Shown here piece by piece: positions 18 through 23,083 of a DNA stretch of 27,147 bases. The notes beneath the pieces are model-generated. The model ran no database searches, had not been told where the DNA came from, and saw only the letters and a list, made by a program, of their open reading frames with translations. The DNA comes from a virus, in UHGV virus genome UHGV-1347488; one strand, given 5' to 3'. Positions within the stretch are counted from its first letter, which is position 1; each line of letters begins with the position of its first letter. The translations under genes were made by a program, and so were the position numbers.

Positions 18-3000
18 TTACACTTCTATTACTTCTTTATCACACATAAGCAAACCATCCAGAAAGCTATTAATAGAACTGATTAACTCTGCATCCTGTG
101 ATGGATCGAGAGACTTCTTAAAGGTAGTGAGATTGCCGCTGATTTCTGATAGAGCACTCTCGGACTCCAAAATCCACGCATCATACTGCTTTTTGGCGTT
201 AGTCAGCATTGTATAATCGGCCTGATCCTGGTATCCGGTAGGATTCTTTTGCTCAATATCCGCAATTTGCTGTTCAATTTTCTCACGTTCTTCCAGATAA
301 CGGTTATAATCTGCCAACTGTTTTGTGGCGTTTTCCATCACTGTACCACGGCCACCAGACATAGTGCCGATATTCTGGTATCCTTCATAAATACTGCTCT
401 TATCAAGGTCAACACCCTCGTAAGAGCCATAATAGGATTCTGCGCCTAACGCTTTTAAAGCATCAGCACGAGACTGTTTTCCGGCAGTATCAGCTTTGAT
501 TTCTGCCAACTGAATGCTGCGTTCCAATTCTGCATTGGCATCTTTCAATTTCTGCAATTCTTCCTGTTCAATGAAAGACAGATGGTCTTTTGCTTCCAAT
601 TCATCAATGCGGCTATTGGTGGTTTTCAACTCATCATTTAAACTTTCAACCTCATTCTTTGCATCCTCATAAGCCTGTGCCGACTCCTCCGCTTTTTCTT
701 TCAGATTGTCGACATTGTGCGCCACATAATCATAAGCTTTGCCAATGGCCCAAATTCCGGCTGTAATAGCCGCTGTGATACCCATGTTAAGAGCCATATT
801 CAGCGCAACGGTTTCTAATTTCAATGCCATTGTTGCTGTCTTGCTCGCATTCAGTGAAGCAGTATAGCCCTTCATCGTAGCTTCGGCACCATTAAGGCCA
901 GAGAGATACGAACGCATATCGAAGTCATTTGTAAGCTGATTGATAGCTTTCTGATTTGCACACTGAGCTTTTACGAGGACATTGTAATTGCTGATGATAC
1001 TATCTGCATTGGCAATAGGCTGTACCACGTTCTTTGTAAATAGGCCGCCGAACTTTTCACCCTCGGCTGATGCCTGTCGCATTTCTTCCAGAGTCTTGCC
1101 TAAGAAGGTAATCTCCGAACCATTGTTATTGAATACCCCGATGGTCTTACCTCTTAAAGCACTTCCGGCTGTGATTGCTCCCATTGCGGTAGAGAGCACG
1201 CCCAGTTTGTCAATTACTTCTGACAGAACATTAAGGAATGCTGCACCGCCATCTGCTGCCCCTTTCAGGAACTCAGAATCTGCAAGCTGCATGGACAATT
1301 TCTCGTAGGCCGCAATCATGGAATTGATATGTGATTGAACTGTATCGGCATAGGCTTCAAATTTCTTTAATGCCTCATCACTAGAATTTTCAGAAATCTT
1401 TGTTAGCTTTTCAACCTTGTCCCAGTTAGATAGAACTATAGCTCCGGTGTTTGCCTGATATACGCCAAAAAGAGCCGAATTAATGGAGTTTCGCTCCACA
1501 TCATTTAATGTGTTGTATCGAGCTGCCAGTTCACGTAATACATCCGATAAATCACGATAGTCTGTCAGGTTTTCTCTTATCTTAATTCCAACTTTTCCGA
1601 GGGCCTTTTCAATATTGCTTAAATCGTCTCCAGATTCATAATCCACAAACTTTCCAACTTTAATTTGGCTATATCTAGCAACGATTGATTTAATGGCATT
1701 ACCTAACTGTTCGTCTCCAAGAGTAGGAGCAGTATCTTTCATGGCCGCAAGCATACCAAGTAATAAATCCACATTAATTCCGGCTTGCTTGGCGGAAGCT
1801 GCCGTTCTTGAAAGTGCTTCTGCAAGACCTCCCGCAGAGCTGGCCGAAGACATATCTACGTTTGACAAACGAGATAAAATGGACATAGTATCAGAAATAT
1901 CCATTTGATAGCCATTTAGAATTGCCATTAAATCTTCCGTAGCACTAGCTTCGTCCATCATACCAATTTTAGATAAGATCATGGAATCCTTAATCAAGGT
2001 ATTGGCTTCGCTGATACTCTTACCAGACCTTAACCAATCATCTGCTGCATTTGCCACAGATGTTGTTGTAGAACCTAAGTCCTGCGCCATCTGATTGTAT
2101 GTACCGATTAATGCCTTAGTCTGCTCTCTTGTTCCGCCAGTCGCAACCTGTAAGTTATACAAGGATGTATCAATATCCTTGGCGGTATTAACCATCTGTT
2201 TGAAAGTCTGGAAAGCCGCAGTCAGAGATACAACATTCGCAACAGCGGAATCAAAGGCGGATTTCATCTCCTGGACTGTCGCATTAGTGGTCAAGCCCAT
2301 CTGCTTTGCTTCACTCTGAATCTGCCTAAACTCGTTCTGCAATGCAGTAAACTTAACAGAATCAGCAGATTGCAAATCAGCTTTAATCTGTGCCAGACGT
2401 GATGAAAAGATTATTGCCGCATCGGTGTTCTTGTTCATCCAGGTATCGAGATTAGTTCCAAATAAAGACTTGTCTGCATTCAGCTTTGTATCTTTAGCAG
2501 CATTTTTCTGCTCAATAGACATCTGTTTGAACCGCTGCGTACAGGTATTAAGTGATTCTGTCAGCTGATTGTATAGCTTAATCTTGCCCTCCGGCTCATC
2601 AATGCTTCCAATCTGCTGTAGCTGCTGCCGCATGGTCTGGAATGCCTGCGCAACATCATCCGGCATATCAAACTTTGCACCTTTAAATTTGGACTCTAAA
2701 TAGTCGAGGTCAGCCGGAAGCTCACGGATATACTGATCCAATTTTTCAGCTGCATTGGAAGACCATTTCTTCGCAATCTCCGCATTGAAAGACTTAGCCT
2801 TTTCGATGGCCTGGTCATATTTTGCAATCATGGCATCCAGACTGCCCTTATCAGAGATATTTGAAAAATCAATGCTATCGACTAATGACTTGAAGGAGTT
2901 GTTGGTTGAATCACCGGATAAAAAAGATTTATAAGTGGATTTTAGACCTTCTAATTTTGACTGAAACTCTGCTGCTTTTGCAGATACCTCTGCAAACTCT

Positions 3001-4121
3001 TTGCCGGACTGGTCAATGACTTTACTGCCTGCATATACATACTGCCCCATATCATTCAGAGCAAAATTGTATTGCTGGATAATTCCTTTGCCCTTATCTA
3101 ACGTGGCACTAAATTTTGTAATTTCTTCATTACCATTTTCGTTGAACTGTAGCCTAATGTCTTTGTCAGTGATACCATCAAGCTGTGTAAAATACCCTTT
3201 GACCTGTGATGTCAGTTCTGAGATTGTCCCCTTACCGAAGGAAACATCAATATCCAATAGGGATTTCTTAATGTTCTGTGCTTCCGCTGATACATCACCG
3301 TTGATGGATTCCAATTGCGCTTTCAACTGGGTACGCATGACCGCCAAATCAGAATATAACTGGCTATACATATCATCTTCAAAGCCGATTTTATCCTTTA
3401 AATTAACCGGCTCCAACTTATCAATATCAGACTTATACAGCTTGATAGCATTCACAATTTCACGAAACTGCTGCGTAGGATCGGCAGTGCCAGAAAACAT
3501 ATCTTTAAATTTAGAAGACATTTCCTGATAAATACTATCTAACTGGATACCGCTTTTATTTGGATCGGTGATGAATTTGTCTGCGGATACCATCCGTAAA
3601 CTATTCCATTCTTTGCCAAGGTCTGATTTTACAATATCTGGGATTTTGATTCGATCAAGAGATTTGAAATAATTGAAGAAATTATCATAGATTCCAGTTC
3701 TGCTTTGGATTATCTGAGCATTCTTACTAATAACTTCGCCCATCTGAAAGATGTATTCAAGATACTTCGGATTTTCTTTTCCTGTTTGTAGCTCGCCAAT
3801 ACTCACGTTCTGGAGCATGTTGGTAAGGTTCTTAATTTGATTCTGTGCTTGCTTGTTCTTAATGTTGTACTGGTTGATGAGACTGTTTCCTAGTGCTTCA
3901 CCAATCTTCTTTCCAGAATCGGTAGCTGCTTTGGCCCCGGTCGTGCCGAGGTTCTTAATTGACTGTTGGATATTCTTATCCAGTTCGGCTTTCAATTTAA
4001 TCTTAGAGCCAGACGCTTCTATCCGCTTTTGTAGTTCTGCTATATCTTTTGCAATAGCCTTGACCGATTCCTTTAAATCGAGTCCGGCCGTTAGGCCAAT
4101 ATTAAAATCTGTATCTGCCAT
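18..4121 (-). CDS. Phage tail tape measure protein (TP901-family core region, C-terminal coiled coil)
   Basis: 1367-aa ORF with Ala/Gly/Ser-rich tape-measure core (…NLQVATGGTREQTKALIGTYNQMAQDLG…SRLSNVDMSSASSAGGLAEALSRTAASAKQAGINVDLLLGMLAAMKDT…), hydrophobic segment ALNMALNMGITAAITAGIWAIG and long coiled coils. ATG at 4121 with RBS GGAAAGGA 7 nt upstream. Confidence 0.9.
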   Translation of the reverse strand: MADTDFNIGLTAGLDLKESVKAIAKDIAELQKRIEASGSKIKLKAELDKNIQQSIKNLGTTGAKAATDSGKKIGEALGNSLINQYNIKNKQAQNQIKNLTNMLQNVSIGELQTGKENPKYLEYIFQMGEVISKNAQIIQSRTGIYDNFFNYFKSLDRIKIPDIVKSDLGKEWNSLRMVSADKFITDPNKSGIQLDSIYQEMSSKFKDMFSGTADPTQQFREIVNAIKLYKSDIDKLEPVNLKDKIGFEDDMYSQLYSDLAVMRTQLKAQLESINGDVSAEAQNIKKSLLDIDVSFGKGTISELTSQVKGYFTQLDGITDKDIRLQFNENGNEEITKFSATLDKGKGIIQQYNFALNDMGQYVYAGSKVIDQSGKEFAEVSAKAAEFQSKLEGLKSTYKSFLSGDSTNNSFKSLVDSIDFSNISDKGSLDAMIAKYDQAIEKAKSFNAEIAKKWSSNAAEKLDQYIRELPADLDYLESKFKGAKFDMPDDVAQAFQTMRQQLQQIGSIDEPEGKIKLYNQLTESLNTCTQRFKQMSIEQKNAAKDTKLNADKSLFGTNLDTWMNKNTDAAIIFSSRLAQIKADLQSADSVKFTALQNEFRQIQSEAKQMGLTTNATVQEMKSAFDSAVANVVSLTAAFQTFKQMVNTAKDIDTSLYNLQVATGGTREQTKALIGTYNQMAQDLGSTTTSVANAADDWLRSGKSISEANTLIKDSMILSKIGMMDEASATEDLMAILNGYQMDISDTMSILSRLSNVDMSSASSAGGLAEALSRTAASAKQAGINVDLLLGMLAAMKDTAPTLGDEQLGNAIKSIVARYSQIKVGKFVDYESGDDLSNIEKALGKVGIKIRENLTDYRDLSDVLRELAARYNTLNDVERNSINSALFGVYQANTGAIVLSNWDKVEKLTKISENSSDEALKKFEAYADTVQSHINSMIAAYEKLSMQLADSEFLKGAADGGAAFLNVLSEVIDKLGVLSTAMGAITAGSALRGKTIGVFNNNGSEITFLGKTLEEMRQASAEGEKFGGLFTKNVVQPIANADSIISNYNVLVKAQCANQKAINQLTNDFDMRSYLSGLNGAEATMKGYTASLNASKTATMALKLETVALNMALNMGITAAITAGIWAIGKAYDYVAHNVDNLKEKAEESAQAYEDAKNEVESLNDELKTTNSRIDELEAKDHLSFIEQEELQKLKDANAELERSIQLAEIKADTAGKQSRADALKALGAESYYGSYEGVDLDKSSIYEGYQNIGTMSGGRGTVMENATKQLADYNRYLEEREKIEQQIADIEQKNPTGYQDQADYTMLTNAKKQYDAWILESESALSEISGNLTTFKKSLDPSQDAELISSINSFLDGLLMCDKEVIEV

Positions 4122-4139
4122 TTAATCATCCTTTCCTTA

Positions 4140-4613
4140 TTAAAAGTAATTTATCTGCACATCTAATGGATTTTTTACCGACTGTCTATATGCTTCGATT
4201 GCCTTATCAACAAAATGCGTTGCTTCACGAAATCCGAAGTATGGCACATCCGCAAACTTGCCATGTGTCTGCCATCCCTCATTTAAGAGCAATGCCGTAT
4301 TAATAGACTTACCATCTAGGCCAGTATGCCATGCTCCATCACCGAAGCCGAGACGAACACTGACAAACATCTTTGTTCCTTTTACCTCTGTATACACTCT
4401 GCTGTCAGTTAATAGGGAATGCTGTAATGCAAAGGTTCTCTTATATAAAACAGGCATATAAGAAGCGTACACCACCCATAGTTGCTGAGAGATGCACGCT
4501 GCTAATATATCTGCATGGTGCCGAAGTTCCTGTTCAATCGTCTTGCCGTTGTCCAGTTTCATTTTGGATACATCCATACTTTTGAGGAGCTTCTTTAAGC
4601 TGTTTTTGTCCAT
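4140..4613 (-). CDS. Hypothetical protein immediately upstream of the tape measure gene (tail-assembly-chaperone position; no recognisable motif)
   Basis: 157-aa ORF, ATG with RBS AAGGGGAG 6 nt upstream; stop 18 nt before the TMP start. Lies in the -1 frame relative to the preceding ORF and overlaps it by 19 nt. Confidence 0.55.
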   Translation of the reverse strand: MDKNSLKKLLKSMDVSKMKLDNGKTIEQELRHHADILAACISQQLWVVYASYMPVLYKRTFALQHSLLTDSRVYTEVKGTKMFVSVRLGFGDGAWHTGLDGKSINTALLLNEGWQTHGKFADVPYFGFREATHFVDKAIEAYRQSVKNPLDVQINYF

Positions 4614-6087: not shown

Positions 6088-9087
6088 CTACGAAACTGAT
6101 GTTCGTTTCTTTCTGAGCGCATTTTCACGACTGCATGATTCAGAACAGGTTAACGCATTGCCCCACTTAATGTATGGCTTTTGACAGATGATACAATCGC
6201 AGACCTTCTTTTTACCATTATAACGGTAAAAGTACGGCAGCAGCTTCTTAGCCTTATATGGAATCTCGTAAGCAAGTGTTTTTTCTTCCGGCTGATATTC
6301 CAACTGAATTTCTATATAGTCTGCATTCTGCTCTGTACTGATAGCTCCTATTTTAGCCAATCGTGCAATGCCTTTCTTGGCAATCGTAACGTCACCTTCC
6401 AACATCTTATCAATGGCCCCATAAGTCAATGCAGATTTTTTGCCGGAATAAATCTTGATGTTTCCAAATCTCTTTGATAAAATCAATAGGACGAATAAAA
6501 GTTCTCGGTCGTTTTCGGCAGTCGATTTTTTATATGGCTGATTATCAATCCATCCTAATTCTTCCTTATAAATCTGCACCGATTTTTCATCAACTTTCAA
6601 AACGGCCTTTGTAGCACTGTCTGCTACCTTTTCCATCTTAATTACCTTTTCTGTGGTGTATCTGGCTCTCCGCCGCTTAACTTCACAGCCTTTATTCTTC
6701 CGAACTGTATCAGCAATTACATCCCCGAAGCAGTTCCAAAGGATATTTTTTCCTGACATGGCAGTTCCTTCATTGCGCTGCATATATTCATATTCCAAAA
6801 GATATTGTGTGGCTCTTCCCCTATCTGGAATAATCTGTAGAATTAATCTTTCGCACAACAGATAGAACACCTCGTATCGACTAATTTTTTCAGCGAAGCC
6901 ATCTGATTTTGTCTGATGTTCAAGTTCTTTCTGAATGTACTGTTCAAGTTGTTTGGCCCTGGCTTTTAAATCGAACATCAGCTTTTCCAACTGACCGTAT
7001 ACGGCATCTTTAACATTTATGGTCATAGACTGGTCAAACAAGATTGATGGGTCAAATTTTTTGCCGTCCTTATTATATGACTTGTTTCCAGTCTGCTTAT
7101 GGATATACTGGCAAATACGGTCACAGATGCTATCACTTGGTGCTGCACAGTTTTCTTTCTTCTTACCTTTTGCATAGATAAAGAAGTAAGGCGGCTTCTT
7201 TGCTTTCAGTTCCAGATACTTTGCTTCGTACTCTCCCAGAGACACATTTTTCTGGCTCTTCGGAAAATCAATAGTCAGATTGTTGTAGCAGCACATAACG
7301 GCATTGAAGTCATCGTCAATTTCCTTGCTGTTATAATTCTTGGTCATGACGTTGGAAATATCACCAATGTTTGAATTGTTCATGCTTGCCACCAGTGCCG
7401 TATAAATTGCATCCGGTGTAACTGGCGTTTTCTCCGCTGAAAAAGATGTATAATATAAGGTATGTTTATCATCGGGGACACAATCCATCATGGCCTGATT
7501 CGGGGTCAGAAGAATCTCATCCCCATCAACATCAAACTGTAAGACCCGGCATAACAGATCATGACCGCTTACTACGGTATCCAAATCATTAAACCATTCT
7601 TTGCATCTTTCAAGGTCAACACCTTTTACCAGATTGCGAATTCCATGCTCCATATACAGGTGAGGACTTCGCAGACAGTCAACCTTTTCATACGGCTTAT
7701 CATTGAAGAAACTGTTATATACATGATTACGTGGAATCAAACCTTTTGGATTCTCAATGCCACAGAACAACCACTCACAGAAGGCATATAAATCAGGGCA
7801 AATATAGCTATACAGTGAATCCGGCAGAATCAGCTTGCATCCTCGGGCATCGGTGCGTTCGGATTTAAACTTGTTCTGTAGTTGATACTGAACATATTTA
7901 TCTCTCAACATATTTTCTGGATCAGCTTCGACCGCTTCCGCTAAATCACTGTCACCCAAAAGCTTCACGATTTTATCTGGATTCTGTTTCAGGTCTGCCA
8001 GATAATCAATGGTCGGCTTGCATAACTCTTCCATCTTCTCATCAGTGAACTTTTGACTGTCTAAAGTCTGCAAAAACTGATAACTGGTTTTAGCGTAACC
8101 TTTCGGTTCTGTGTCCGCAAATTTATTGATTGCAATTCTCATGCCGTTTGCTTTGAATGCGGCCTTGTACTCTTCCCATGATTTATAGTAGGCGTGCATT
8201 TTTAACTGTGAAGCAGTCAGAATAACTTGAATGTCCTCTGCAATAACATCATGCTCATTTCCCCACGCATCCTTAATAATTGGACTCGGTTTTACTCCTT
8301 CTACGGATGGCTGTGCAAGAAACTTGCGGAAATCAAATGGGAAAATACAGCCTTTCATATGTGCGCATCTGATTTGTGCCGATGCAGGAAGGACACCAGG
8401 CAGAAACATTCCGGCTCCATCAGTTTGAGGAATCTTTATATGTTCCGTCCTTACCTCAATGCCAGTGATAGTTTCATCATCGTGGTCAATGCACTTAACC
8501 TCTTCATCCAGATAGGTTTCAAAGTCACCTACCACAAGGCACTTATCAATATTCAATTCGTAATTGGTGGGAATAAATGATGTTGATAGCGGTAGTCCCT
8601 TATATGCAAGATACTTACCAGTATTACAACCGCCATTAGAGTTAATGAGTTCGTTTGTCAGACCGCACATGAATTGTTTTTCATGCTGTCGGTAAAAATC
8701 CTCTTTGATTAGGATAATCTCACCACGCTTCATCTGATTTGTGGTTGAACTATAAAAGATGTAATGTGTGCCGTCAATGTCTACGCCATTCTGTAGAATC
8801 TGTTTCAGAATCGTATTCTGCTGTGCCACTTTTAGATAAATAATCTCGGTCAACACTGGCGTTCCATCCATAGAATCTGTAGTGTATCGTCCCATCTCGC
8901 TCTCAAAGAGTGCAATCTGATTGTCGGTGCGCTCTTCATCGTTTAGAGATAATGCCGATTTGTAAATCTGCCGGACACCTGTGAAAGATTCTATTAGATT
9001 GTCTCGCTGTTTTTTCAGATACAGCTTGGTGTTTGCTTTTGTGGATTCCTTGTATGCTTTGTGTGCGTTCCGCTCCTCATCGGTCAA
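6088..9087 (-). CDS. Large polymerase-like protein with DxDGD motif; candidate YonO-like single-subunit two-barrel RNA polymerase (C-terminal Cys cluster)
   Basis: 999-aa ORF containing FDVDGDEILLTP, which resembles the metal-binding NADFDGD loop of RNAP beta-prime, YonO and cellular RdRPs; C-terminal CDCIICQ…CSESC. Listed start is TTG with no clear RBS, so the true start is uncertain. Confidence 0.5.
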   Translation of the reverse strand: MTDEERNAHKAYKESTKANTKLYLKKQRDNLIESFTGVRQIYKSALSLNDEERTDNQIALFESEMGRYTTDSMDGTPVLTEIIYLKVAQQNTILKQILQNGVDIDGTHYIFYSSTTNQMKRGEIILIKEDFYRQHEKQFMCGLTNELINSNGGCNTGKYLAYKGLPLSTSFIPTNYELNIDKCLVVGDFETYLDEEVKCIDHDDETITGIEVRTEHIKIPQTDGAGMFLPGVLPASAQIRCAHMKGCIFPFDFRKFLAQPSVEGVKPSPIIKDAWGNEHDVIAEDIQVILTASQLKMHAYYKSWEEYKAAFKANGMRIAINKFADTEPKGYAKTSYQFLQTLDSQKFTDEKMEELCKPTIDYLADLKQNPDKIVKLLGDSDLAEAVEADPENMLRDKYVQYQLQNKFKSERTDARGCKLILPDSLYSYICPDLYAFCEWLFCGIENPKGLIPRNHVYNSFFNDKPYEKVDCLRSPHLYMEHGIRNLVKGVDLERCKEWFNDLDTVVSGHDLLCRVLQFDVDGDEILLTPNQAMMDCVPDDKHTLYYTSFSAEKTPVTPDAIYTALVASMNNSNIGDISNVMTKNYNSKEIDDDFNAVMCCYNNLTIDFPKSQKNVSLGEYEAKYLELKAKKPPYFFIYAKGKKKENCAAPSDSICDRICQYIHKQTGNKSYNKDGKKFDPSILFDQSMTINVKDAVYGQLEKLMFDLKARAKQLEQYIQKELEHQTKSDGFAEKISRYEVFYLLCERLILQIIPDRGRATQYLLEYEYMQRNEGTAMSGKNILWNCFGDVIADTVRKNKGCEVKRRRARYTTEKVIKMEKVADSATKAVLKVDEKSVQIYKEELGWIDNQPYKKSTAENDRELLFVLLILSKRFGNIKIYSGKKSALTYGAIDKMLEGDVTIAKKGIARLAKIGAISTEQNADYIEIQLEYQPEEKTLAYEIPYKAKKLLPYFYRYNGKKKVCDCIICQKPYIKWGNALTCSESCSRENALRKKRTSVS

Positions 9088-10877: not shown

Positions 10878-12098
10878 TTACGCCAACTGTTTTCCTCTAG
10901 CGGAATAAACTTCTGCCCCGGTCAGACCATCAACACACTGTTCAGTGATAAGCACCCTCTTTGCACCCTTCAAGTCTGGCACAGAAAACATAACATCTTG
11001 CATGGCTGACTCAATGATGCTGCGCAGACCTCTTGCACCAGATTTTTGCTTAATTGCTTTTTCCGCAATTTTCCTTAAAGCTTCGTCTGAAAACTCCAGA
11101 TTGACCTTATCCAACTTCATCAGTTCGGCATACTGTTTGGTCAGTGCATTCTTCGGTTCTGTAAGGATACGAAGCAAAGCATCTTCATCAAGTGGCATTA
11201 AGGTTGCCAACACCGGAATACGCCCCATTAACTCAGGAATTAGTCCGTAGTGGACTAAATCGGCATCAGTTATTTTGCTGAAATCGAAACTATCTGAAGG
11301 TGATGTGTTCACTGAATTGAACCCGATGGAATTACCAGAAGATTCCTGACCTACGATTTTCTCAATCCCATCAAATGCCCCACCAACGATAAATAGAATG
11401 TTGGAAGTATCCATACGCACTGTAGCCGCATTTGGGTGTTTGCGTCCGCCGCTTAGCGGTACATCAGCTATGGTTCCCTCCAGAATCTTTAAGAGTGCCT
11501 GTTGTACTCCTTCACCGGAAACATCACGAGTGATAGAAGTGTTCTCGCCTTTTCTGGAAAGCTTATCAATCTCGTCAACGTAAACGATCCCCCGCTGTGC
11601 CAGGTCAAGATCGTGATTGGCGGCATCATATAAGCGGAGTAGGACATTCTCGACATCCTCGCCAACATAACCAGATTCGGTCAGACAAGTGGCATCAGAC
11701 ATAGCAAAGGGAACGCCTAAGAATTTTGCCAGTGATTGAACCAGATATGTCTTACCGCTTCCTGTTGGCCCTACAAGCATGATGTTTGACTTCTGGATTT
11801 CTACACAGGATTTTGATTTCTGTGAGATGCGCTTGTAATGATTGTAAACCGCCACAGACAGAATCTTCTTTGCATCGTTCTGGCCGATGACATACTCGTC
11901 AAGATGCTTCTTAATCTGACTAGGAGTTGCCAACTTGAAGCTGTTTGATTTTGCGGATTCTTCCTTGTCCTGAAATGCTTCTTCTGCTTGCATAGAACAC
12001 TCACGGCAGAGACAGCCATATTTACCCTTGATGAGATAGTCAACCTGAGACTCGTCCTTGCCGCACATAAAACAGTAGTTAATGCGTTTTGTTGCCAT
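10878..12098 (-). CDS. clpX: ATP-dependent Clp protease ATP-binding subunit ClpX (phage-borne)
   Basis: N-terminal C4 zinc-binding domain (CFMCGK…CLCRECS), Walker [17 protein letters not shown] motif, Walker B VYVDEIDK, sensor and arginine-finger region (SGARGLR); ATG with RBS AAAGGAGAG. Confidence 0.9.
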
Positions 12099-12934: not shown

Positions 12935-13940
12935 AATGCCTTTCTCCTTTATTTTGATATATGTATATAGAAGATTCTCTATCTGGAATCTTGTTTTATC
13001 GTGATGATGAAGGTTACGGCAAATTTACCAGAACCTTTGTATGGGGATCGGGTTTACCAAATTCGGTAAAGTTGGTTTATCATGCTCCAATTATGGATAA
13101 TATTATGTAAACAAAATAGACATATCCAGAAATGGACATTAATCTTCGATATCTATTTTTGCTATTTGTCCGCATATTTCCCATCTGTCCGTATATCCAC
13201 CATCGGGAACAGAACATTAAGAAACACCTGTATTTCCTAGCGTTTCTCATCGTACCAACTAGAAACTGAATCATCTGCCAACGCCAGACTAGCACTCTGA
13301 GCCAAAACAGTCTTAATGTCTTTAATTCCCAGTATTTATATAGGATTTAAGCATTTCCAAGTAAATTCAGGCTTATCGGTAGTGACATCGCAAAAAGGAA
13401 GTAAATCCTTACCTTTTCAGCATTGGTATCCCATAAATTGAACATCTAAAAATTCAAAAATTTTATACTTTTGACCGTAAAACCCTTGTAATCCTTACAT
13501 TTTTACGATACCGATTTTCTTTCCGAAGTCTCCATGATTTTTCACATTTTTGCGATAAACCTATCCGGCACGATTTCTGGCCCAGTTATTCCAACGCTCA
13601 CACTTAGCTTCTGCTTTCTCCTGTGTATTAAATACACACCGTCTACGGATACCAACACAAGAATCAGTATCAGATACATGAATCTTTACTCTTAGATTCT
13701 CCTTGCCTAGATCAGATACAACAATTCCAGTCTGCACCTTCCAGATGCGTCGATTCTTCCGTTTAACCAGAAACCTTTGAATGAACCACACCTGCTGTCC
13801 CTCTGTAAATACCAACTGAATCACTCTCCTTTTGATTTGGACATTTTGTTTATGTCTAAATTTGCACGATAGCTCACCCAAATGAGCCTTATTTTACTGG
13901 ACTTTAGACACATTCTATAGGGAAAAATGGGACCATGGAA

Positions 13941-14305
13941 TTTGCATTATCCAAAGTCCTACAAAGCTAGTAAATAAGCCATTTTTACGATTATATATAC
14001 GCAAAATTCATACCTATCATTTTGCATTATTCCGTTCATTTCATACATTGTTCACTCATTGAATTTTTAAAATTCTTATTGCTTTGCCATCGAAAATGTG
14101 CTAAAATAAGTTCAACTAAAAAGATTATGCAAATGATTTTTTAAGTTATTTTTTTGCATTATAGAAAGTCGAGAAACCCTTGATTTTACTAGCTTTTAGA
14201 CACAATTAACATGCAAAATTCATACCATGGATTTGCATTATAGAAAGTCGGAAATCCCTTGTAATTACTGGGTTTTGGTGACAATTAACATGCAAAATTC
14301 ATACC
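13941..14305. repeat. Array of about 74-bp direct repeats with 5-bp spacers (period about 79 bp); candidate origin or iteron/promoter array
   Basis: Units 13941..14014, 14153..14226 and 14232..14305 each start TTTGCATTAT and end (A/C)GCAAAATTCATACC; spacers ATGGA/TATCA; a diverged longer unit at 14020..14152 and a partial unit at about 13900..13940. The last two units are about 85% identical. Confidence 0.7.
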
Positions 14306-14342
14306 TATGTATAGAATGTATTATATACCGATAGGTATACGT

Positions 14343-16250
14343 CTAAGCCATTAGCTTAATGGTAATATCAATATCATCTTTACTCTTATCAATTCCAACC
14401 ACTTTATCAGTATTAGGATTATCAACAATCACACCACCATCATTACAAGTATTATCATTATACTTATTAGTGTGTTTTTGCGAGTAAATATTATACCAAT
14501 TTCCTTTATCACTTCTATTCTGTATCACATCAATACACTGCGCAGATTGCAGGTTCTTAATTGCTTCAATAATGTTCGGTTTTCCGAAATGAAGAATCCT
14601 ATCCATTTCCTCAATCGTACATGCACGACCATTTCTGATGTTGTTTACGATACACAGAAATACCTTAAATTCATTCTGTGTAATCTGCTTCGCAATGAAC
14701 GCTCTTGCCGCACTGTAGTAAAACTCAATATACTTATCATTAAAGTCTTTCAATCCTCTTTTGATTTTAATTTTCGTCAAATCAAAGGAATTTTTTGACT
14801 TGTTTTCCGGCTCTACTAATTCAATACAATGATGCGCTACCAAGCGTTCTAAAGTATCTTTAAATGTTCTTATATCCATGCAAAGTTGCCATTTCCCATG
14901 TATTTTGTACTGCATTTTCATCTTCAAATTTCTAATTGTAAACGGTGTTTTAGAACCGCTCTTGATGTATTTATAAAGGATCGTCATAATCAGATATTCA
15001 AATCCGCTCATGCTGATGTCCTTGTCATTTCTCAGCCGATTATCCGTCAACAGCTTCTGTGACATCTTCACGCCAATATCTTCCTGAATGGAAATAACTT
15101 TCTTCTGAACAGCTTGCATACAATGGAGTTTGTCGCACTGCGCCTGTACCATCTTTTTCACACGTTCATCCGGTATCTGCTCCCAACAACCATTTAAACG
15201 GTAAATGTTTTCATGATCCAGATATGCGTCAATATCTTTCTTTACCTCATTTGAATTCTTCGGTGGTCTACACCTGGTATTCCAGTCAAGACAGATTTCA
15301 CGAACTTTTGATTCTGTGTATCCGTCATATCTCAGCATGGAAACAATACGGCCTAACCAAGTATTGCGCTCACCCTCGTCTGCTCCCTCACGAAGAACTT
15401 TTTCAGTACATAAACACGGATATGTTTTCAGATTAAGGCCATCACCGGAATAATCCCATTTTTCCAACGGTTTGCTTTCTAGTTGGAACTGTTCTTTTTT
15501 CAGTTCGTTTTCTACTCTTCTTCTGATAAATGCGGTGTCCATAGGGTGATAACCTGCCACTTGATTATCATGCTTCTTGTAATGGTCAACTTCCTTTACA
15601 AGCGGAAACTTGCCGTTTTCATCTGGATGTTTGCGGTTATAGGTGCATGGGATTCTGGCTACCTGTGTCACCTTGCAAGCGTTTGTATCTGCTCCTACTA
15701 TCTGGCAAATCATCTTGTTCAGTTCTGATAAATCTCTGACCTTACAAGTCGGTTTCACAATCACATAGAAGTGGTATCCATGTCCAGAATCATACACTGC
15801 ATGGACAAATAAATCTGGTAATTTATCCCTAATCAGCTGCCGAAATTCTTCTACACTGTGGAGATTTTCATGGTCTTTTTTATCGAAATCAATGAATAAA
15901 ACCCTCTGCTGTCTCATATTGGCTTCACGCCTATGTAATTCATTTTTGCGGTCATATTTTACTGTTGCAAGTGCATTATAAATATGATAATTGTGTCTGT
16001 ACTTCATGATACACTCAACGTACTGGTCAAAATTTTTTACATAGCGGTGGAACTTAATCTCGTTTCCATCTTTATCTAATGCCGGATTACCCTGTTCATC
16101 CGTTTTTGCAATGAACAAACAAATAAATTCTTTTTCTTCCAGTTTGGAAGGGTATAACATCTCATAGTATCTTTTTAAATGATTGCTAATAGTAGTACCT
16201 TCTTTCTTACCATTCTGTCGGTAGTAAAATTGTTGTTCTTGTGTCCTCAT
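14343..16250 (-). CDS. Archaeo-eukaryotic-type primase-polymerase (PrimPol-like replication protein)
   Basis: 635-aa ORF with AEP motifs in order: VLFIDFDKKD (DxD), DSGHGYHFYV (sxH) and ARIPCTYNRK (R-x-P-G/C-x-N); large C-terminal domain. The start has a weak RBS and is overlapped by the upstream ORF. Confidence 0.65.
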   Translation of the reverse strand: MRTQEQQFYYRQNGKKEGTTISNHLKRYYEMLYPSKLEEKEFICLFIAKTDEQGNPALDKDGNEIKFHRYVKNFDQYVECIMKYRHNYHIYNALATVKYDRKNELHRREANMRQQRVLFIDFDKKDHENLHSVEEFRQLIRDKLPDLFVHAVYDSGHGYHFYVIVKPTCKVRDLSELNKMICQIVGADTNACKVTQVARIPCTYNRKHPDENGKFPLVKEVDHYKKHDNQVAGYHPMDTAFIRRRVENELKKEQFQLESKPLEKWDYSGDGLNLKTYPCLCTEKVLREGADEGERNTWLGRIVSMLRYDGYTESKVREICLDWNTRCRPPKNSNEVKKDIDAYLDHENIYRLNGCWEQIPDERVKKMVQAQCDKLHCMQAVQKKVISIQEDIGVKMSQKLLTDNRLRNDKDISMSGFEYLIMTILYKYIKSGSKTPFTIRNLKMKMQYKIHGKWQLCMDIRTFKDTLERLVAHHCIELVEPENKSKNSFDLTKIKIKRGLKDFNDKYIEFYYSAARAFIAKQITQNEFKVFLCIVNNIRNGRACTIEEMDRILHFGKPNIIEAIKNLQSAQCIDVIQNRSDKGNWYNIYSQKHTNKYNDNTCNDGGVIVDNPNTDKVVGIDKSKDDIDITIKLMA

Positions 16251-17198: not shown

Positions 17199-17567
17199 TT
17201 ACTGTGCAAAATAATCTGCCAGTTCTTCCAGACTCATAGGAGTCTCGCCCGCCTGTAACACACTGCTGCTATCTGCAATCAGCCAGCCGGAAGTACCCAA
17301 CACATGCTCTTTTGCTGGCACAAGGTGTAATCCGCTCTTCTTGGCTTTTTCCTCCATCTGTCCCAATGTCAGAATTGGATTCACCTTTACTGCTCTACTT
17401 CCTCTTTCTGAGTTCTCAGCTTCAAAATCTACAATGTCATCATCATCTAAGGTGCGGAATCCCTGCATCTGAATATCGGTCTGATGCACGAAATAATCCT
17501 TGTGGTTATCACCAGTGATGAATCCCCATCCTTTAGTCTTGTCGAATAATTTAACTGTTCCTCTCAT
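17199..17567 (-). CDS. Cold-shock domain protein (CspA-like N-terminal domain with about 55-aa C-terminal extension)
   Basis: MRGTVKLFDKTKGWGFITGD…DYFVHQTDIQ matches the RNP1 (KGFGFI) and RNP2 (VFVHF) motifs of cold-shock proteins; RBS AAAGGAGA 8 nt upstream; about 260-bp untranslated region upstream. Confidence 0.75.
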   Translation of the reverse strand: MRGTVKLFDKTKGWGFITGDNHKDYFVHQTDIQMQGFRTLDDDDIVDFEAENSERGSRAVKVNPILTLGQMEEKAKKSGLHLVPAKEHVLGTSGWLIADSSSVLQAGETPMSLEELADYFAQ

Positions 17568-20072: not shown

Positions 20073-21179
20073 CTACTTACTGATTCTTCTGGCTTTCAGT
20101 TGCTCTAACGCTGACAGGCCGCTACTAGTCGGCTTATGCTCTGGTTCCTTCTTGACCGCAAACACACTGGATGTTCTGGCGGTGCGCACCTGTGTAAGAG
20201 CCTTCAAAGAGTTCTGCACGCTCTCAGCTTCTTTTTCTACGGATTCTGCTAACGCATCAATCCGGCTGTACGGCATCACCAGGCCGCTAAGGATCACCAC
20301 ATTTTCACCGGAATCTGAAACATATCCGTGATATTCGGTCGGTGCTGTACCTACGGCTTTCCGGAGTTCCGCAATATCAATCTTGCTCTCTTTTGCTGAT
20401 ACCGCTTCGGAAATACCCATAATGCTGACCGTCTTATCTTCCCGCTGTGCAAAAATATTGCTCTCACGGGTCAGAATATCCACGATATAACCCGTTGTGC
20501 CATTGGCTGCATTAGTGGCAACGATTACAGAAAATGACGGACAATGTAAGCAGCTTTCAATCTCTGCCAAATCCATATTGCCGTCCTGGGATTTATTGTT
20601 AATGCAAAGCACTGCTGTCATCAGTCTGGCGAATGCTCGGTTGATCTGCAACTTCTCACCGGAGTTATTGTCCAGCATGAAAATGCTTCCCAAACTCGGC
20701 TTTAATTCCTCGATTTCCTCAAAGGTCTGTCTGGCATTATCTCTGATTTTTAAGGATTCCGTATCTGCCGGAATAACCACAACCAGACACACTTTGTATC
20801 CCATCTCTAACAGGATTCTTGCCAACATTGGCCCCATTGCAGAGCCGGTTCCACCGCCCATTGAAAATGCGATAAATACTGTGCTGCCCTCGATTATGTA
20901 CTGCTGCAATTCATCCAGAATACTATCAACATTTTCCGCAAGTGCATCTAAGCTGCGCTCCCTGTTGCCTGCTGCCCCATTACAGTTTTTCACATGGATT
21001 TTGTGGGACAGATTAACCGCCGATAAATCCTCGGTACTGGTGTTGATACCAACAAAGGATACGCTGTCTTTGCTGCCATCCAGTTCCATAACCTTCTTTT
21101 CAACCTCAGAAATGACCTGGCATCCGCACTGACCGCATCCGATAAAGGTAGCTTTTAATCTCGTATTTAATTTTTTCAT
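20073..21179 (-). CDS. Tubulin/FtsZ-superfamily GTPase, TubZ/PhuZ-like (putative partition or positioning cytoskeletal protein)
   Basis: T1-loop-like GCGQCGCQ near the N-terminus and tubulin signature-like FSMGGGTGSAMGP; internal ATG (MKKLNT…) with RBS AGAGGAG 7 nt upstream, chosen over the track's 21206 start; begins 4 nt after the stop of the upstream small HTH gene. Confidence 0.7.
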   Translation of the reverse strand: MKKLNTRLKATFIGCGQCGCQVISEVEKKVMELDGSKDSVSFVGINTSTEDLSAVNLSHKIHVKNCNGAAGNRERSLDALAENVDSILDELQQYIIEGSTVFIAFSMGGGTGSAMGPMLARILLEMGYKVCLVVVIPADTESLKIRDNARQTFEEIEELKPSLGSIFMLDNNSGEKLQINRAFARLMTAVLCINNKSQDGNMDLAEIESCLHCPSFSVIVATNAANGTTGYIVDILTRESNIFAQREDKTVSIMGISEAVSAKESKIDIAELRKAVGTAPTEYHGYVSDSGENVVILSGLVMPYSRIDALAESVEKEAESVQNSLKALTQVRTARTSSVFAVKKEPEHKPTSSGLSALEQLKARRISK

Positions 21180-21183
21180 AGAC

Positions 21184-21444
21184 TTACTCCTCTTGTTCCA
21201 TCTCATCCATCCATTGAATTCCTGTGGAAGTAATATAGTAGGTTTTGGCGTTTAACTGGTTCATACCATATTTGATGTATCCCAGATTAATCAGCTCCTT
21301 TAGATGCTTATAGATAACCTTGTAAGAGTATTTGATACCAATCTCTGCAAGACCCTCTTCAATCATCTTCTGAGTAGCCGCAACTAACTTGCTTCTTGCT
21401 TCCGCATGGAATAGGACGTTGAGAATTTCGTAATTTGTACGCAA
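21184..21444 (-). CDS. Small winged-HTH protein upstream of the tubulin-like gene (TubR-like by position and size)
   Basis: 86-aa ORF with TTG start and AGGAAGG RBS; helix-wing segment YKVIYKHLKELINLGYIKYG…NAKTYYITSTG; arrangement resembles tubR-tubZ operons. Confidence 0.45.
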   Translation of the reverse strand: MRTNYEILNVLFHAEARSKLVAATQKMIEEGLAEIGIKYSYKVIYKHLKELINLGYIKYGMNQLNAKTYYITSTGIQWMDEMEQEE

Positions 21445-21804
21445 ATAAAATCATCCTTCCTATATTCAGTTGTAGTGTTTCTTCTATATAAAGTGTGGGA
21501 AATGCCGCAGCAGAACGCTGACAGCAATTTGACAAATAAAAAAAATCATGATAATATACTTTTGAACATTTGTTACATGGTCGTTTACCAGACGATCACG
21601 TTATTACCATGAAAGCCTTCTGTCATCACGGTGTTACCAGCACCAGACAGGAGGTTTTTCATTTATCTTACCGCTCACTATATATCAAATTGGAACTCTG
21701 TTCCTATCCTGTTTGTTTATTATTGGTTCTGTGTTTCATCTCTGTTGTACCTCTTTTCCTTTGATGGGTTAAGTATAGCACTGTATGATAACCTAGTCAA
21801 GTAG

Positions 21805-21947
21805 TTTTGTATTATTTTTATATTTTTTGTATTATAATATTTTTATGTGTATTATTTTATTGTATTTGCACCAATTTTGTATTATAAAATAGTGTTTTCC
21901 TATTTTATTTAATATCTTCGTTGAAAAAAAACGGATTTTGTATTATT
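21805..21947. repeat. Iterated TTTTGTATTAT(T/A) motif, 5-6 copies (candidate operator or centromere-like repeats)
   Basis: Copies at 21805, 21825, about 21847, 21875 and 21936; the last overlaps the putative promoter of the 21971 gene. Confidence 0.5.
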
Positions 21948-21949
21948 CT
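21921..21949 (+). promoter_or_regulatory. Candidate sigma70-type promoter for the 21971 gene (-35 TTGAAA, 17-bp spacer, -10 TATTCT)
   Basis: Hexamers read directly; followed by RBS GAGGTGAG and the ATG at 21971. Confidence 0.3.
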
Positions 21950-21970
21950 AAACATATGAGGTGAGATAAA

Positions 21971-23083
21971 ATGCTAGGAAAAAAAATTATTTTAAATGAT
22001 GCTATCCGTGATTCTATCACTAGATTTAGGAAAAGCAAAATGAAAGAACACCCCGAATTAACCGCAGATGGCATTTCAGAAAAAATAGGAAGATCTAAGT
22101 CTTGGTTATCTCAAGTAGNNNNNNNNNNNNNNNNNNNNNNNNNNNNNNNNNNNNNNNNNNNNNNNNNNNNNNNNNGAGCAGATTTCAATTTTAAATATGA
22201 ATATGATGCAGTAGCCAAACGTGTAGATAATGAAATCATGTTAATAAATGCATTCATTAAACATGGTATTGCAGATGAAAACGGTAATATACTTGATTTC
22301 CATGAGAGTCTACGATTAGAGCAATGTAGAGGTTTTCTTCGACAAGCCGGAAAAATGACAGATTGTTATATTAAGGAATATTTACAAAACCCAATTCAGG
22401 AAATTGAAAAAAAAATTAAAACTGAGATTCATAATGTTTTAATTGAAATTGTTCGATGGATAAACAGAGCTTTTGATGACACTGCTGATTTATTTTCTGA
22501 TGAAGTGTCAACTAAAAATTTATATTGTTTACTGGAAACGGCATATACTATTTTTAATGCTCATTGTGATTATTTCGGCCTAAATCCTTTAACCGCCACA
22601 GATACTGATTTAAAAACCTTAAAGAACAAATTAAATACGGATTGTTTTATAAAACCACGAACGGTATTAAAACCTCTTGATGATTATACAGAATCAGAGT
22701 TCAAGGAAGTGGTTAAAAATTTTTCTTCCGAAGAATATATGCAATGGAAAAACAAGCGCATTTATATTGGTGATGATCCATTTCCTATGACTGTTGGTTT
22801 TATTGATAGTAAAAAAGAACGGCATACCCCACTACACTATATAACTTATCCAGATTTAAATAAAGCTACCGGATTATCTGAAAAGGAATATCTCTATATC
22901 ATTAAGCAAGTTTATTTACAATTTGATATTTTTTATAAAGATTGTCAATCGTTAAGAGATGATTTGGAATTTTATAAAGATGAAAATGATCAGTATTACG
23001 ATGAAATTCAAGAATTAAATGAACGTATAAATGAACTCACCAATAAACTTAATACTGAGTCAGAGAAGCCACCAGAGGAATAA
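21971..23083 (+). CDS. HTH-domain protein with large C-terminal domain of unknown function (370 aa; reading frame interrupted by an N run)
   Basis: RBS GAGGTGAG; N-terminal XRE-like segment (…LTADGISEKIGRSKSWLSQV…); C-terminal coiled-coil-like region; very AT-rich codon usage. Confidence 0.65.
   Translation: MLGKKIILNDAIRDSITRFRKSKMKEHPELTADGISEKIGRSKSWLSQVXXXXXXXXXXXXXXXXXXXXADFNFKYEYDAVAKRVDNEIMLINAFIKHGIADENGNILDFHESLRLEQCRGFLRQAGKMTDCYIKEYLQNPIQEIEKKIKTEIHNVLIEIVRWINRAFDDTADLFSDEVSTKNLYCLLETAYTIFNAHCDYFGLNPLTATDTDLKTLKNKLNTDCFIKPRTVLKPLDDYTESEFKEVVKNFSSEEYMQWKNKRIYIGDDPFPMTVGFIDSKKERHTPLHYITYPDLNKATGLSEKEYLYIIKQVYLQFDIFYKDCQSLRDDLEFYKDENDQYYDEIQELNERINELTNKLNTESEKPPEE
22119..22175. other. 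Run of 57 N (assembly gap or masked segment) inside the 21971..23083 ORF
   Basis: Literal n characters; length is a multiple of 3, so the frame is preserved. Confidence 0.95.

Follow-up and report, generated by a model that had tools for sequence, protein, structure and literature searches.

A composite repeat array beside a primase-type initiator gene as a candidate replication origin in phage-like elements of gut Lachnospiraceae

ColE2 and plasmids of the pAMbeta1 family encode initiators of the archaeo-eukaryotic primase (AEP) type, and have their origins just downstream of rep. Origins beside genes for such initiators are known; what is unusual in the locus described herein is a repeat unit of ~80 bp together with a conserved hairpin and leader. 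The locus is a tandem repeat array adjoining the gene for a 635-aa primase-type protein (14343–16250, minus strand) in a 27,147-nt stretch of the virus genome UHGV-1347488, which in its entirety is referred to as the window. Based on sequence comparisons, the array is probably (at roughly 60 %) the cis-acting replication-origin region of a rep-ori module, with the adjoining protein as its initiator.

The oriV of RSF1010 comprises iterons, an AT-rich stretch and two hairpin priming sites, ssiA and ssiB, with primers starting a few nt 3′ of the hairpin (PMC8567376). At ssiA, where nt 7–27 form the hairpin, RepB′ binds the six nt on its 5′ side and begins the primer at T32 (PMC8567376). The window likewise combines repeats with an AT-rich centre, its covarying hairpin leads into an invariant sequence, and RepB′ is also the best structural match to the predicted model of the 635-aa protein, with the likeness spanning the catalytic and helix-bundle domains. 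Against this, RSF1010 employs an iteron binder (RepC), a helicase (RepA) and a primase (RepB′), whilst the window encodes a single protein that combines primase and winged helix, and has no helicase. The two ssi sites of RSF1010 lie on opposite strands, whereas the window has a single hairpin-leader; furthermore, RepB′ and the window protein share only 8–9 % sequence identity, and the units of the window are ~80 bp in length.

In the Sulfolobus plasmid pRN1, a small hairpin at the stop codon of the prim-pol rep gene is followed by the origin, a stem–loop that was mapped to the 166 bp downstream of that gene (PMC4234260). The pRN1 protein (ORF904) and that of the window are both AEP-type replication proteins, and the two loci share non-coding DNA just downstream, which in pRN1 holds the origin, and the stop-codon hairpin. 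They differ in that pRN1 relies on a single 100-nt stem–loop without repeats, and on a protein that does contain a helicase, whilst the window has no comparably long stem–loop. Classical iteron origins (pPS10, R6K, P1 and F) resemble the present locus in having direct repeats by an AT-rich region and the rep gene, in repeats that are homogenised within a replicon yet differ between replicons, and in an initiator with winged-helix modules. Their iterons measure 17–22 bp, however, and are served by WH1–WH2 Rep proteins lacking primase activity, whilst the window displays a period of ~80 bp and a primase initiator. A further comparison is afforded by pCD6, the replicon of which is that used in Clostridioides difficile vectors (PMC6807378), and by other small clostridial plasmids. 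These share with the window a distantly homologous Rep, a tandem array downstream of rep (beginning ~200 bp after the stop in the plasmids), the host phylum and a low G+C content; they are, however, only 4.5–7 kb in size, whilst the window belongs to a phage-like element with tail, TubZ and RNA polymerase genes.

Anatomy of the array

Relative to its two minus-strand neighbours, the array is positioned 3′ of the primase gene and 5′ of the gene that comes next. Tandem Repeats Finder identifies 14153–14305 (period 79, 1.9 copies, 86 % matches, score 234) as by far the strongest array of the window, and a repeat search with 14153–14226 as reference returns a four-copy family of 74 nt, the other members being 14232–14305 (85 %), 13941–14014 (62 %) and 13861–13934 (62 %). 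From left to right, start-to-start distances for the four are 80, 212 and 79 bp, with spacers of 5–6 bp. An initial sequence-only reading, which described a ~79-bp-period array abutting the primase gene and composed of at least three 74-bp units with conserved ends, is thereby borne out, as repeat finding and alignment yield four full units and one partial unit. Some of its dimensions need amending: spacers had been given as uniformly 5 bp, and the left boundary of the proposed interval (13900–14342) moves ~40 bp further left to take in the diverged fourth unit. In addition, the distance from the primase stop to the next operon, given as 440 bp, becomes a non-coding gap of ~527 bp (13816–14342) provided that TTG 13815 is the start of the next gene. 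This start, which is preceded by AGGAGAG, is the most likely one for that gene (13561–13815, minus strand, 84 aa, no family assignment). No open reading frame (ORF) of more than 40 aa is found in the array itself, and the extended frame of the next gene overlaps its distal end, reaching 13881.

Read along the minus strand, the region opens directly after the primase stop with a hairpin (14324–14339, TATACC-tatc-GGTATA), which is followed by a leader, TAATACATTCTATACATA (14306–14323), the most conserved sequence of the whole region. Unit 1 (14232–14305, minus strand) is proximal to the primase and consists of a 5′ box, box A (GGTATGAATTTTGCAT, 14305→14290), a middle rich in A/T tracts, and box B (TATAATGCAAA, 14242→14232); it can be aligned with 46 other units from 20 loci. 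Unit 2 (14153–14226, minus strand) is supported by Tandem Repeats Finder, the repeat family and the unit alignment. A degenerate AT-rich stretch of ~130 bp (14015–14152, G+C 0.27–0.30) then separates the two pairs of units, and harbours a partial unit end (14021–14030) as well as a reversed copy of TTTGCATAAT (14124–14133). This centre is a candidate unwinding region: it ranks amongst the 0.6–2.6 % least stable duplex windows of the 27 kb without being the global minimum, and when treated as single-stranded DNA it does not fold stably by itself (z +1.0).

The distal pair begins with unit 3 (13941–14014, minus strand), the middle of which contains TTTACTAGCTTT; its reverse complement, AAAGCTAGTAAA, is found in unit 2. 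Unit 4 (13861–13934, minus strand) is diverged, with its box A (GGTCCCATTTTTCCCTAT) corresponding to the family consensus form, and with TATCGTGCAAA as box B. It additionally carries a 10-mer, TATAGAATGT, that is the inverse of ACATTCTATA in the leader, and forms no hairpin there. The minus strand reads CGACTTTCTATAATGCAAA in two units and GGACTTTGGATAATGCAAA in one, with GGAATAATGCAAA in the partial unit and GCTATCGTGCAAA in the fourth. Within the 27-kb window, three exact copies of GCAAAATTCATACC are restricted to the array, and TTTGCATTAT has four exact copies inside 300 bp and one further copy in the remaining 27 kb.

Conservation of the layout beside the primase gene

Searches of metagenome and genome collections returned 141 homologues of the primase, with identities from 96 % to 33 %; named genomes amongst these belong to Lachnospiraceae, Blautia, Dorea, Eubacterium, Roseburia and other gut Clostridia. 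INPHARED phages gave no match in either nucleotide or protein searches, and no homologue was found in any cultured phage there; a search of IMG/VR by protein patterns likewise returned zero relatives. A scan of IMG/VR for the leader 16-mer produced 110 hits, only one of which (L043) is a true family member, with the others being unrelated.

The DNA following the primase stop was read in ~20 distinct loci, spanning primase identities from 96 % down to 34 %. In every one of them a non-coding gap of 340–560 bp is present, and all gaps share the same order of elements on the primase-sense strand, i.e. the hairpin, the leader and then two or more units with a phasing of 78–80 bp. The leader, which follows the hairpin, has a near-invariant core of TAATACATTCTATACA(T/C)AG. 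Units in relatives follow a plan of box A (consensus GGTnCnAATTTTCCCTAT), an A/T-tract middle (AAAAnCTnGnAAAATCAAGGGTTTT) and box B (TATnGTGCAAA), with the TGCAAA boxes spaced 78–80 bp apart in every locus and at least 90 % conserved in homologous units. After two units comes an AT-rich or a long-hairpin segment, and the distal pair of units is present only in the closest clade (the window, L001 and L002). The gene beyond the gap varies by locus, encoding the 84-aa ORF, a 962-aa protein, a GIY-YIG protein, a ParB-like protein or a transposase, such that the primase gene is the only constant neighbour of the array in everything examined. A lack of this repeat architecture in related elements had been named beforehand amongst the findings that would count against the initial reading; the same layout lies beside the primase in all ~20 loci. 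As judged by these sequences, the layout is widespread in uncultured gut Lachnospiraceae elements.

Eight of the loci (L008, L014, L018, L019, L024, L026, L027 and L029) display a long hairpin after unit 2, ~200–300 nt past the primase stop. This element, GCAGTTCCATGTA-(~38 nt)-TACATGGACTGCAAA, is highly conserved, is preceded by a run of A residues, and is separated by ~76 nt from the TGCAAA that precedes it. It has no counterpart in the window.

Both the hairpin and the leader are retained over considerable distances. A perfect stem of at least 5 bp ending exactly at the leader occurs in 17 of 22 distinct loci, compared to 3.6 % at random positions, and pairing is preserved by at least seven distinct stems, including TATACC/GGTATA, TATTCC/GGAATA, TATCCT/AGGATA and TATCTA/TAGATA; further paired stems amongst relatives are TATATGTCC/GGACATATA, TATCCTAC/GTAGGATA and TTAGGGGC/GCCCCTAA. 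The leader is the same, or almost the same, in loci whose primases share only 50–96 % identity with that of the window, and variants of it (TATTATACATTCGTATACA) are still recognisable at 34–35 % primase identity.

The 5′ box of the unit evolves differently from its middle. Identity of box A between units 1 and 2 of one locus averages 0.76, and is at least 0.88 in 11 of 20 loci, compared to 0.53–0.59 between loci; the unit middle displays no such within-locus excess (0.54 vs 0.46–0.56). Box A is unlike between units 1 and 2 in five loci. Clade-specific box A types can be distinguished, namely GGTATGAATTTTGC, GGTCCCATTTTTCC, GTTACCAAAATTCC and GGGGGGAAATTAAAC. Because box A is homogenised and the middle is not, units 1 and 2 are old paralogues in which the 5′ box is kept alike within each element. 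Box A thus evolves in concert within a locus, in the manner of iterons, as far as these alignments reveal. Conservation of the region as a whole exceeds that of synonymous sites: for the window and L002, intergenic identity is 0.73 vs 0.46 at four-fold degenerate sites of the primase, with corresponding values of 0.87 vs 0.79 for L001, indicating that the array region is under purifying selection. A/T tracts in the region recur with a periodicity of 10–11.5 bp, for which the z-scores are inflated because the loci are related; this spacing is compatible with DNA bending, or with contacts made on a single face of the helix.

The primase-type initiator and its plasmid homologues

In the product of the gene at 14343–16250, an AEP primase-polymerase domain is joined by a helix bundle (PriCT_1) and, at the C terminus, by a winged helix. 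It matches phrog_695 (DNA polymerase/primase, E-value 5e-10) and, weakly and under the Pfam cutoff, PriCT_1 (residues 287–338, E-value 1.2e-3). DFD and SGxGxH motifs, which are typical of archaeo-eukaryotic primases, are invariant across 14 homologues. Residues 522–598 at the C terminus match MarR-type winged helices, and the same region in homologues matches Pfam DnaD_N, with E-values of up to 1.4e-10. An AlphaFold model of moderate quality was obtained, with a predicted local distance difference test (pLDDT) score of 67 overall and 76–88 in the AEP domain; using this model, the best solved structure in Foldseek is the RSF1010 primase RepB′ (3H20, E-value 8e-7; 3H25, E-value 2.7e-4). Neither domain searches nor the model detected a helicase domain in the 635-aa protein. 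On the strength of these matches and of the predicted fold, it is an AEP primase of the RepB′/plasmid-Rep kind fused to a winged helix.

When 72,556 plasmids were searched by tblastn, only distant homologues (24–30 % identity) were retrieved, each being the large ORF of a small non-mobilizable clostridial plasmid. Amongst them is RepA of the C. difficile plasmid pCD6 (E-value 1e-9). Seven perfect 35-bp repeats are found in pCD6 at 3915–4158, beginning 200 bp past the repA stop (3714), and length differences between pCD6-like records are mostly multiples of 35 bp. Similarly, Sarcina p10 harbours 5.7 perfect 27-bp repeats starting 220 bp past its rep homologue. These arrays differ from that of the window in consisting of perfect units of 27–35 bp in 5–7 copies, whilst the window has diverged composite units of 79–80 bp in two pairs. 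No clear array was seen beside the homologue in C. difficile pAR1090-2 or Terrisporobacter pTPDSL2, and in a P. sordellii plasmid a 5 × 50 bp array is located elsewhere than beside the homologue.

The 35-bp repeat of pCD6 (L030, 3915–4158) contains AGAATGTAT, the reverse complement of ATACATTCT. This 9-mer is common to the pCD6 repeat and to the invariant leader of the window (14306–14323), on the opposite strand relative to rep; it may be due to chance, or may be a recognition element of distantly related initiators.

Alternative readings, gene setting and implications

The origin reading is favoured because the array always accompanies the primase gene, because its 5′ box evolves in concert within a locus and the region is under purifying selection, and because distant plasmid Rep homologues have arrays in the same position. 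The sequence-only reading had offered an iteron-type origin and a stack of leftward promoters, singly or combined, and it is the first of these that the comparisons support. A promoter region or long 5′ leader of the downstream operon, with one or more leftward promoters in the units or in the leader, is nevertheless a rival to be considered, with recognition either by host sigma-A or by the YonO-like RNA polymerase of the element itself. The region does lie upstream of a co-directional operon encoding this polymerase, and the promoter used by YonO is unknown (PMC5467207), which was counted in favour of such a role. There is also a TATAAT in the leader that is conserved family-wide; located at 14320–14325, right after the primase stop, it overlaps the 3′ arm of the hairpin and lacks a conserved −35, and it may be a promoter, a signal for the primase, or both. 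As for the units, it had been proposed that each carries a conserved minus-strand TATAAT. The hexamer is indeed TATAAT in two units of the window and GATAAT in a third, but it reads AATAAT and TATCGT in others, and in relatives it is TATCGT, TTATGT, TTGCGT, TAAAGT or TATCTT, with only the adjoining TGCAAA remaining unchanged. Where one unit had been said to hold a TTACAA 16 bp upstream of the hexamer, our scan gives ATTACA-17-TATAAT (14265→14237). Sigma-70-like sites in 13600–14600 number 5, compared to 5.5 ± 2.3 in shuffled sequences, and only one reaches 10/12. The unit motifs are moreover confined to the array, save for the one outlying copy of TTTGCATTAT. With no enrichment over shuffles and no conservation of the hexamer, a stack of leftward promoters was rejected. 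The broader promoter reading is further weakened because the array follows the primase, whichever operon lies downstream; in L008 the next gene is an oppositely oriented transposase. We consider it unlikely, though deserving of some weight.

Two other readings compete with that of an origin. The array may be a protein-binding site with no part in initiation, serving instead as a TubR/TubZ centromere, in packaging, or in incompatibility or copy control (handcuffing). Centromeres typically contain phased direct repeats in arrays, the distal units are limited to one clade and could be a control array, and the unit end TTTTGCATTAT of the window is similar to TTTTGTATTAT, which has four copies upstream of tubR (21806–21946). 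This motif likeness is, however, seen in the window only: repeats upstream of tubR in relatives differ per locus (TTCTGAAAAA, AAATAAGTAA) whilst the TGCAAA box of the array does not change, and L003 and L004, with identical primase and array, have different tubR regions. A tubC-type centromere was rejected on this basis. In L008, the primase and array occur without a called phage structural gene in the surrounding 11.8 kb, which also counts against this reading, and overall a binding array of this kind has but a slim chance of being correct. No more probable, and if anything a shade less so, are tandem structured RNAs or single-stranded DNA elements, with the ~75-nt unit hairpins acting as regulatory or primer RNA. 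In the window, units are each closed by TTTGCAT...ATGCAAA, folding of the entire region is more favourable than that of shuffled sequences (z −2.5 and −3.1), and in one clade the third unit is a long hairpin, GCAGTTCCATGTA...TACATGGACTGC. The closing stem is specific to the window, though, being TTTTCCGT in L001 and TTTTCCCTAT in others, and is absent from the 96 % relative. RNAalifold on 47 units finds no consensus structure; a candidate central helix is paired in 58 % of cells, equal to shuffles and without excess covariation; and Rfam and ARAGORN identify no known RNA or tRNA in the array. The excess in folding stems from long-range inverted segments between proximal and distal units (13963–13974 with 14185–14196; 13910–13919 with 14310–14319), rather than from unit hairpins. 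A structured unit RNA was consequently rejected.

A number of observations also weigh against an origin. At 74 bp, with a period of 79–80 bp, the unit is around four times the size of classical 17–22 bp iterons, although the conserved sub-boxes measure 6–16 bp, and the units have diverged from one another instead of being near-identical. Duplex stability reaches its minimum for the window outside of the array, at 21807–21914. The pCD6 RepA is but a distant homologue (25 % over 300 residues), and the role of the pCD6 array in replication is itself putative. Box A types track the phylogeny of the primase, so that co-evolution is inseparable from common descent, and the winged helix shows no clustering of the residue differences between the primase of the window and that of its 96 % relative. 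Finally, GC skew has no inflection at the array, which is uninformative because the genes on both sides all share one direction.

The main alternative origin candidate is the stretch at 21805–21946 (and 21445–21970), the most AT-rich and least stable of the window (87–92 % AT), which contains TTTTGTATTAT four times along with variants. It is flanked by the leftward tubR–tubZ operon and by a rightward gene starting at 21971, and is probably a tubC centromere/operator or a divergent promoter region. A block upstream of tubR is common to the window (21545–21700, minus strand) and L004 (~1090–1340), with GGTGCTGGTAACACC, GATCGTCTGGTAAACGA, TTATTTGTCAAATT and TTCCCACACTTTATATAGAAG as examples of what is conserved, and could be a shared promoter, leader or small RNA. 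L003 differs from L004 and L005, all of which have an identical primase (P0007), in its tubR–tubZ alleles and in the repeats upstream of them; this sharing of primase and array alongside different tubR–tubZ alleles indicates modular exchange between replication and partition modules.

With regard to the wider setting, nearly all long ORFs between 18 and 21444 are on the minus strand. Protein-family matches identify a tape-measure protein gene at 18–4121 (minus strand), and the 999-aa product of 6088–9087 (minus strand) is a YonO-like single-chain two-barrel RNA polymerase (Pfam RdRP, E-value 1e-14; PHROG 8308, E-value 7e-148), which is kept downstream of the primase module in L001, L002 and L010. 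A ClpX homologue (10878–12098, minus strand), an ATPase of the ClpX type that carries a zinc finger, and the gene for a cold-shock-domain protein (17199–17567, minus strand) both recur close to the primase in L001, L002, L006, L007, L009 and L010. TubZ tubulin is encoded at 20073–21206 and a small winged-helix TubR-like protein at 21184–21444, both on the minus strand. A run of 57 N, being either masked bases or a scaffold gap, is present at 22119–22175 within a 370-aa ORF (21971–23083). Given this gene content (tape measure, RNA polymerase, primase, TubZ and TubR-like), the window is a piece of a phage-like element, which is probably plasmid-capable.

If the array is an origin, its parts could work together as follows. 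The winged-helix part of the initiator would bind the repeated boxes, with box A serving as specificity determinant and TGCAAA as the common box, these being phased every 78–80 bp on A/T-tract-rich and probably bent DNA. The assembled complex would then melt the AT-rich centre, and the hairpin with the invariant TAATACATTCTATACA by the stop codon would act as a single-strand priming site for the AEP domain, much as ssiA does for RepB′. Since the 635-aa protein has no helicase domain, a host helicase would take over and, with a host polymerase, continue replication. A more far-reaching proposal, which we put forward tentatively and regard as doubtful, is that one polypeptide, made up of AEP primase, PriCT bundle and DnaD_N-like winged helix but lacking a helicase, carries out both origin recognition and priming on an origin composed of phased ~80-bp units and a single hairpin priming site. 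This would define a replicon class not described before, and widespread amongst the phage-plasmid-like elements of gut Lachnospiraceae.

Were this so, the roles of recognition and priming that are split in RSF1010 between RepC and RepB′ would be merged in one protein. If the origin reading itself is right, the family would show how a fusion of AEP primase and winged helix can recognise its own origin and prime there with no helicase dedicated to it. A 5′ box that differs by clade would, in turn, predict incompatibility or specificity groups amongst these elements. The invariant leader, together with the 78–80 bp phasing of TGCAAA, can serve as a signature by which to detect this replicon in metagenomes. 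For Lachnospiraceae and related gut Clostridia, where genetic tools are scarce, the primase gene plus the ~530 bp downstream of it would then constitute a compact, self-contained replicon.

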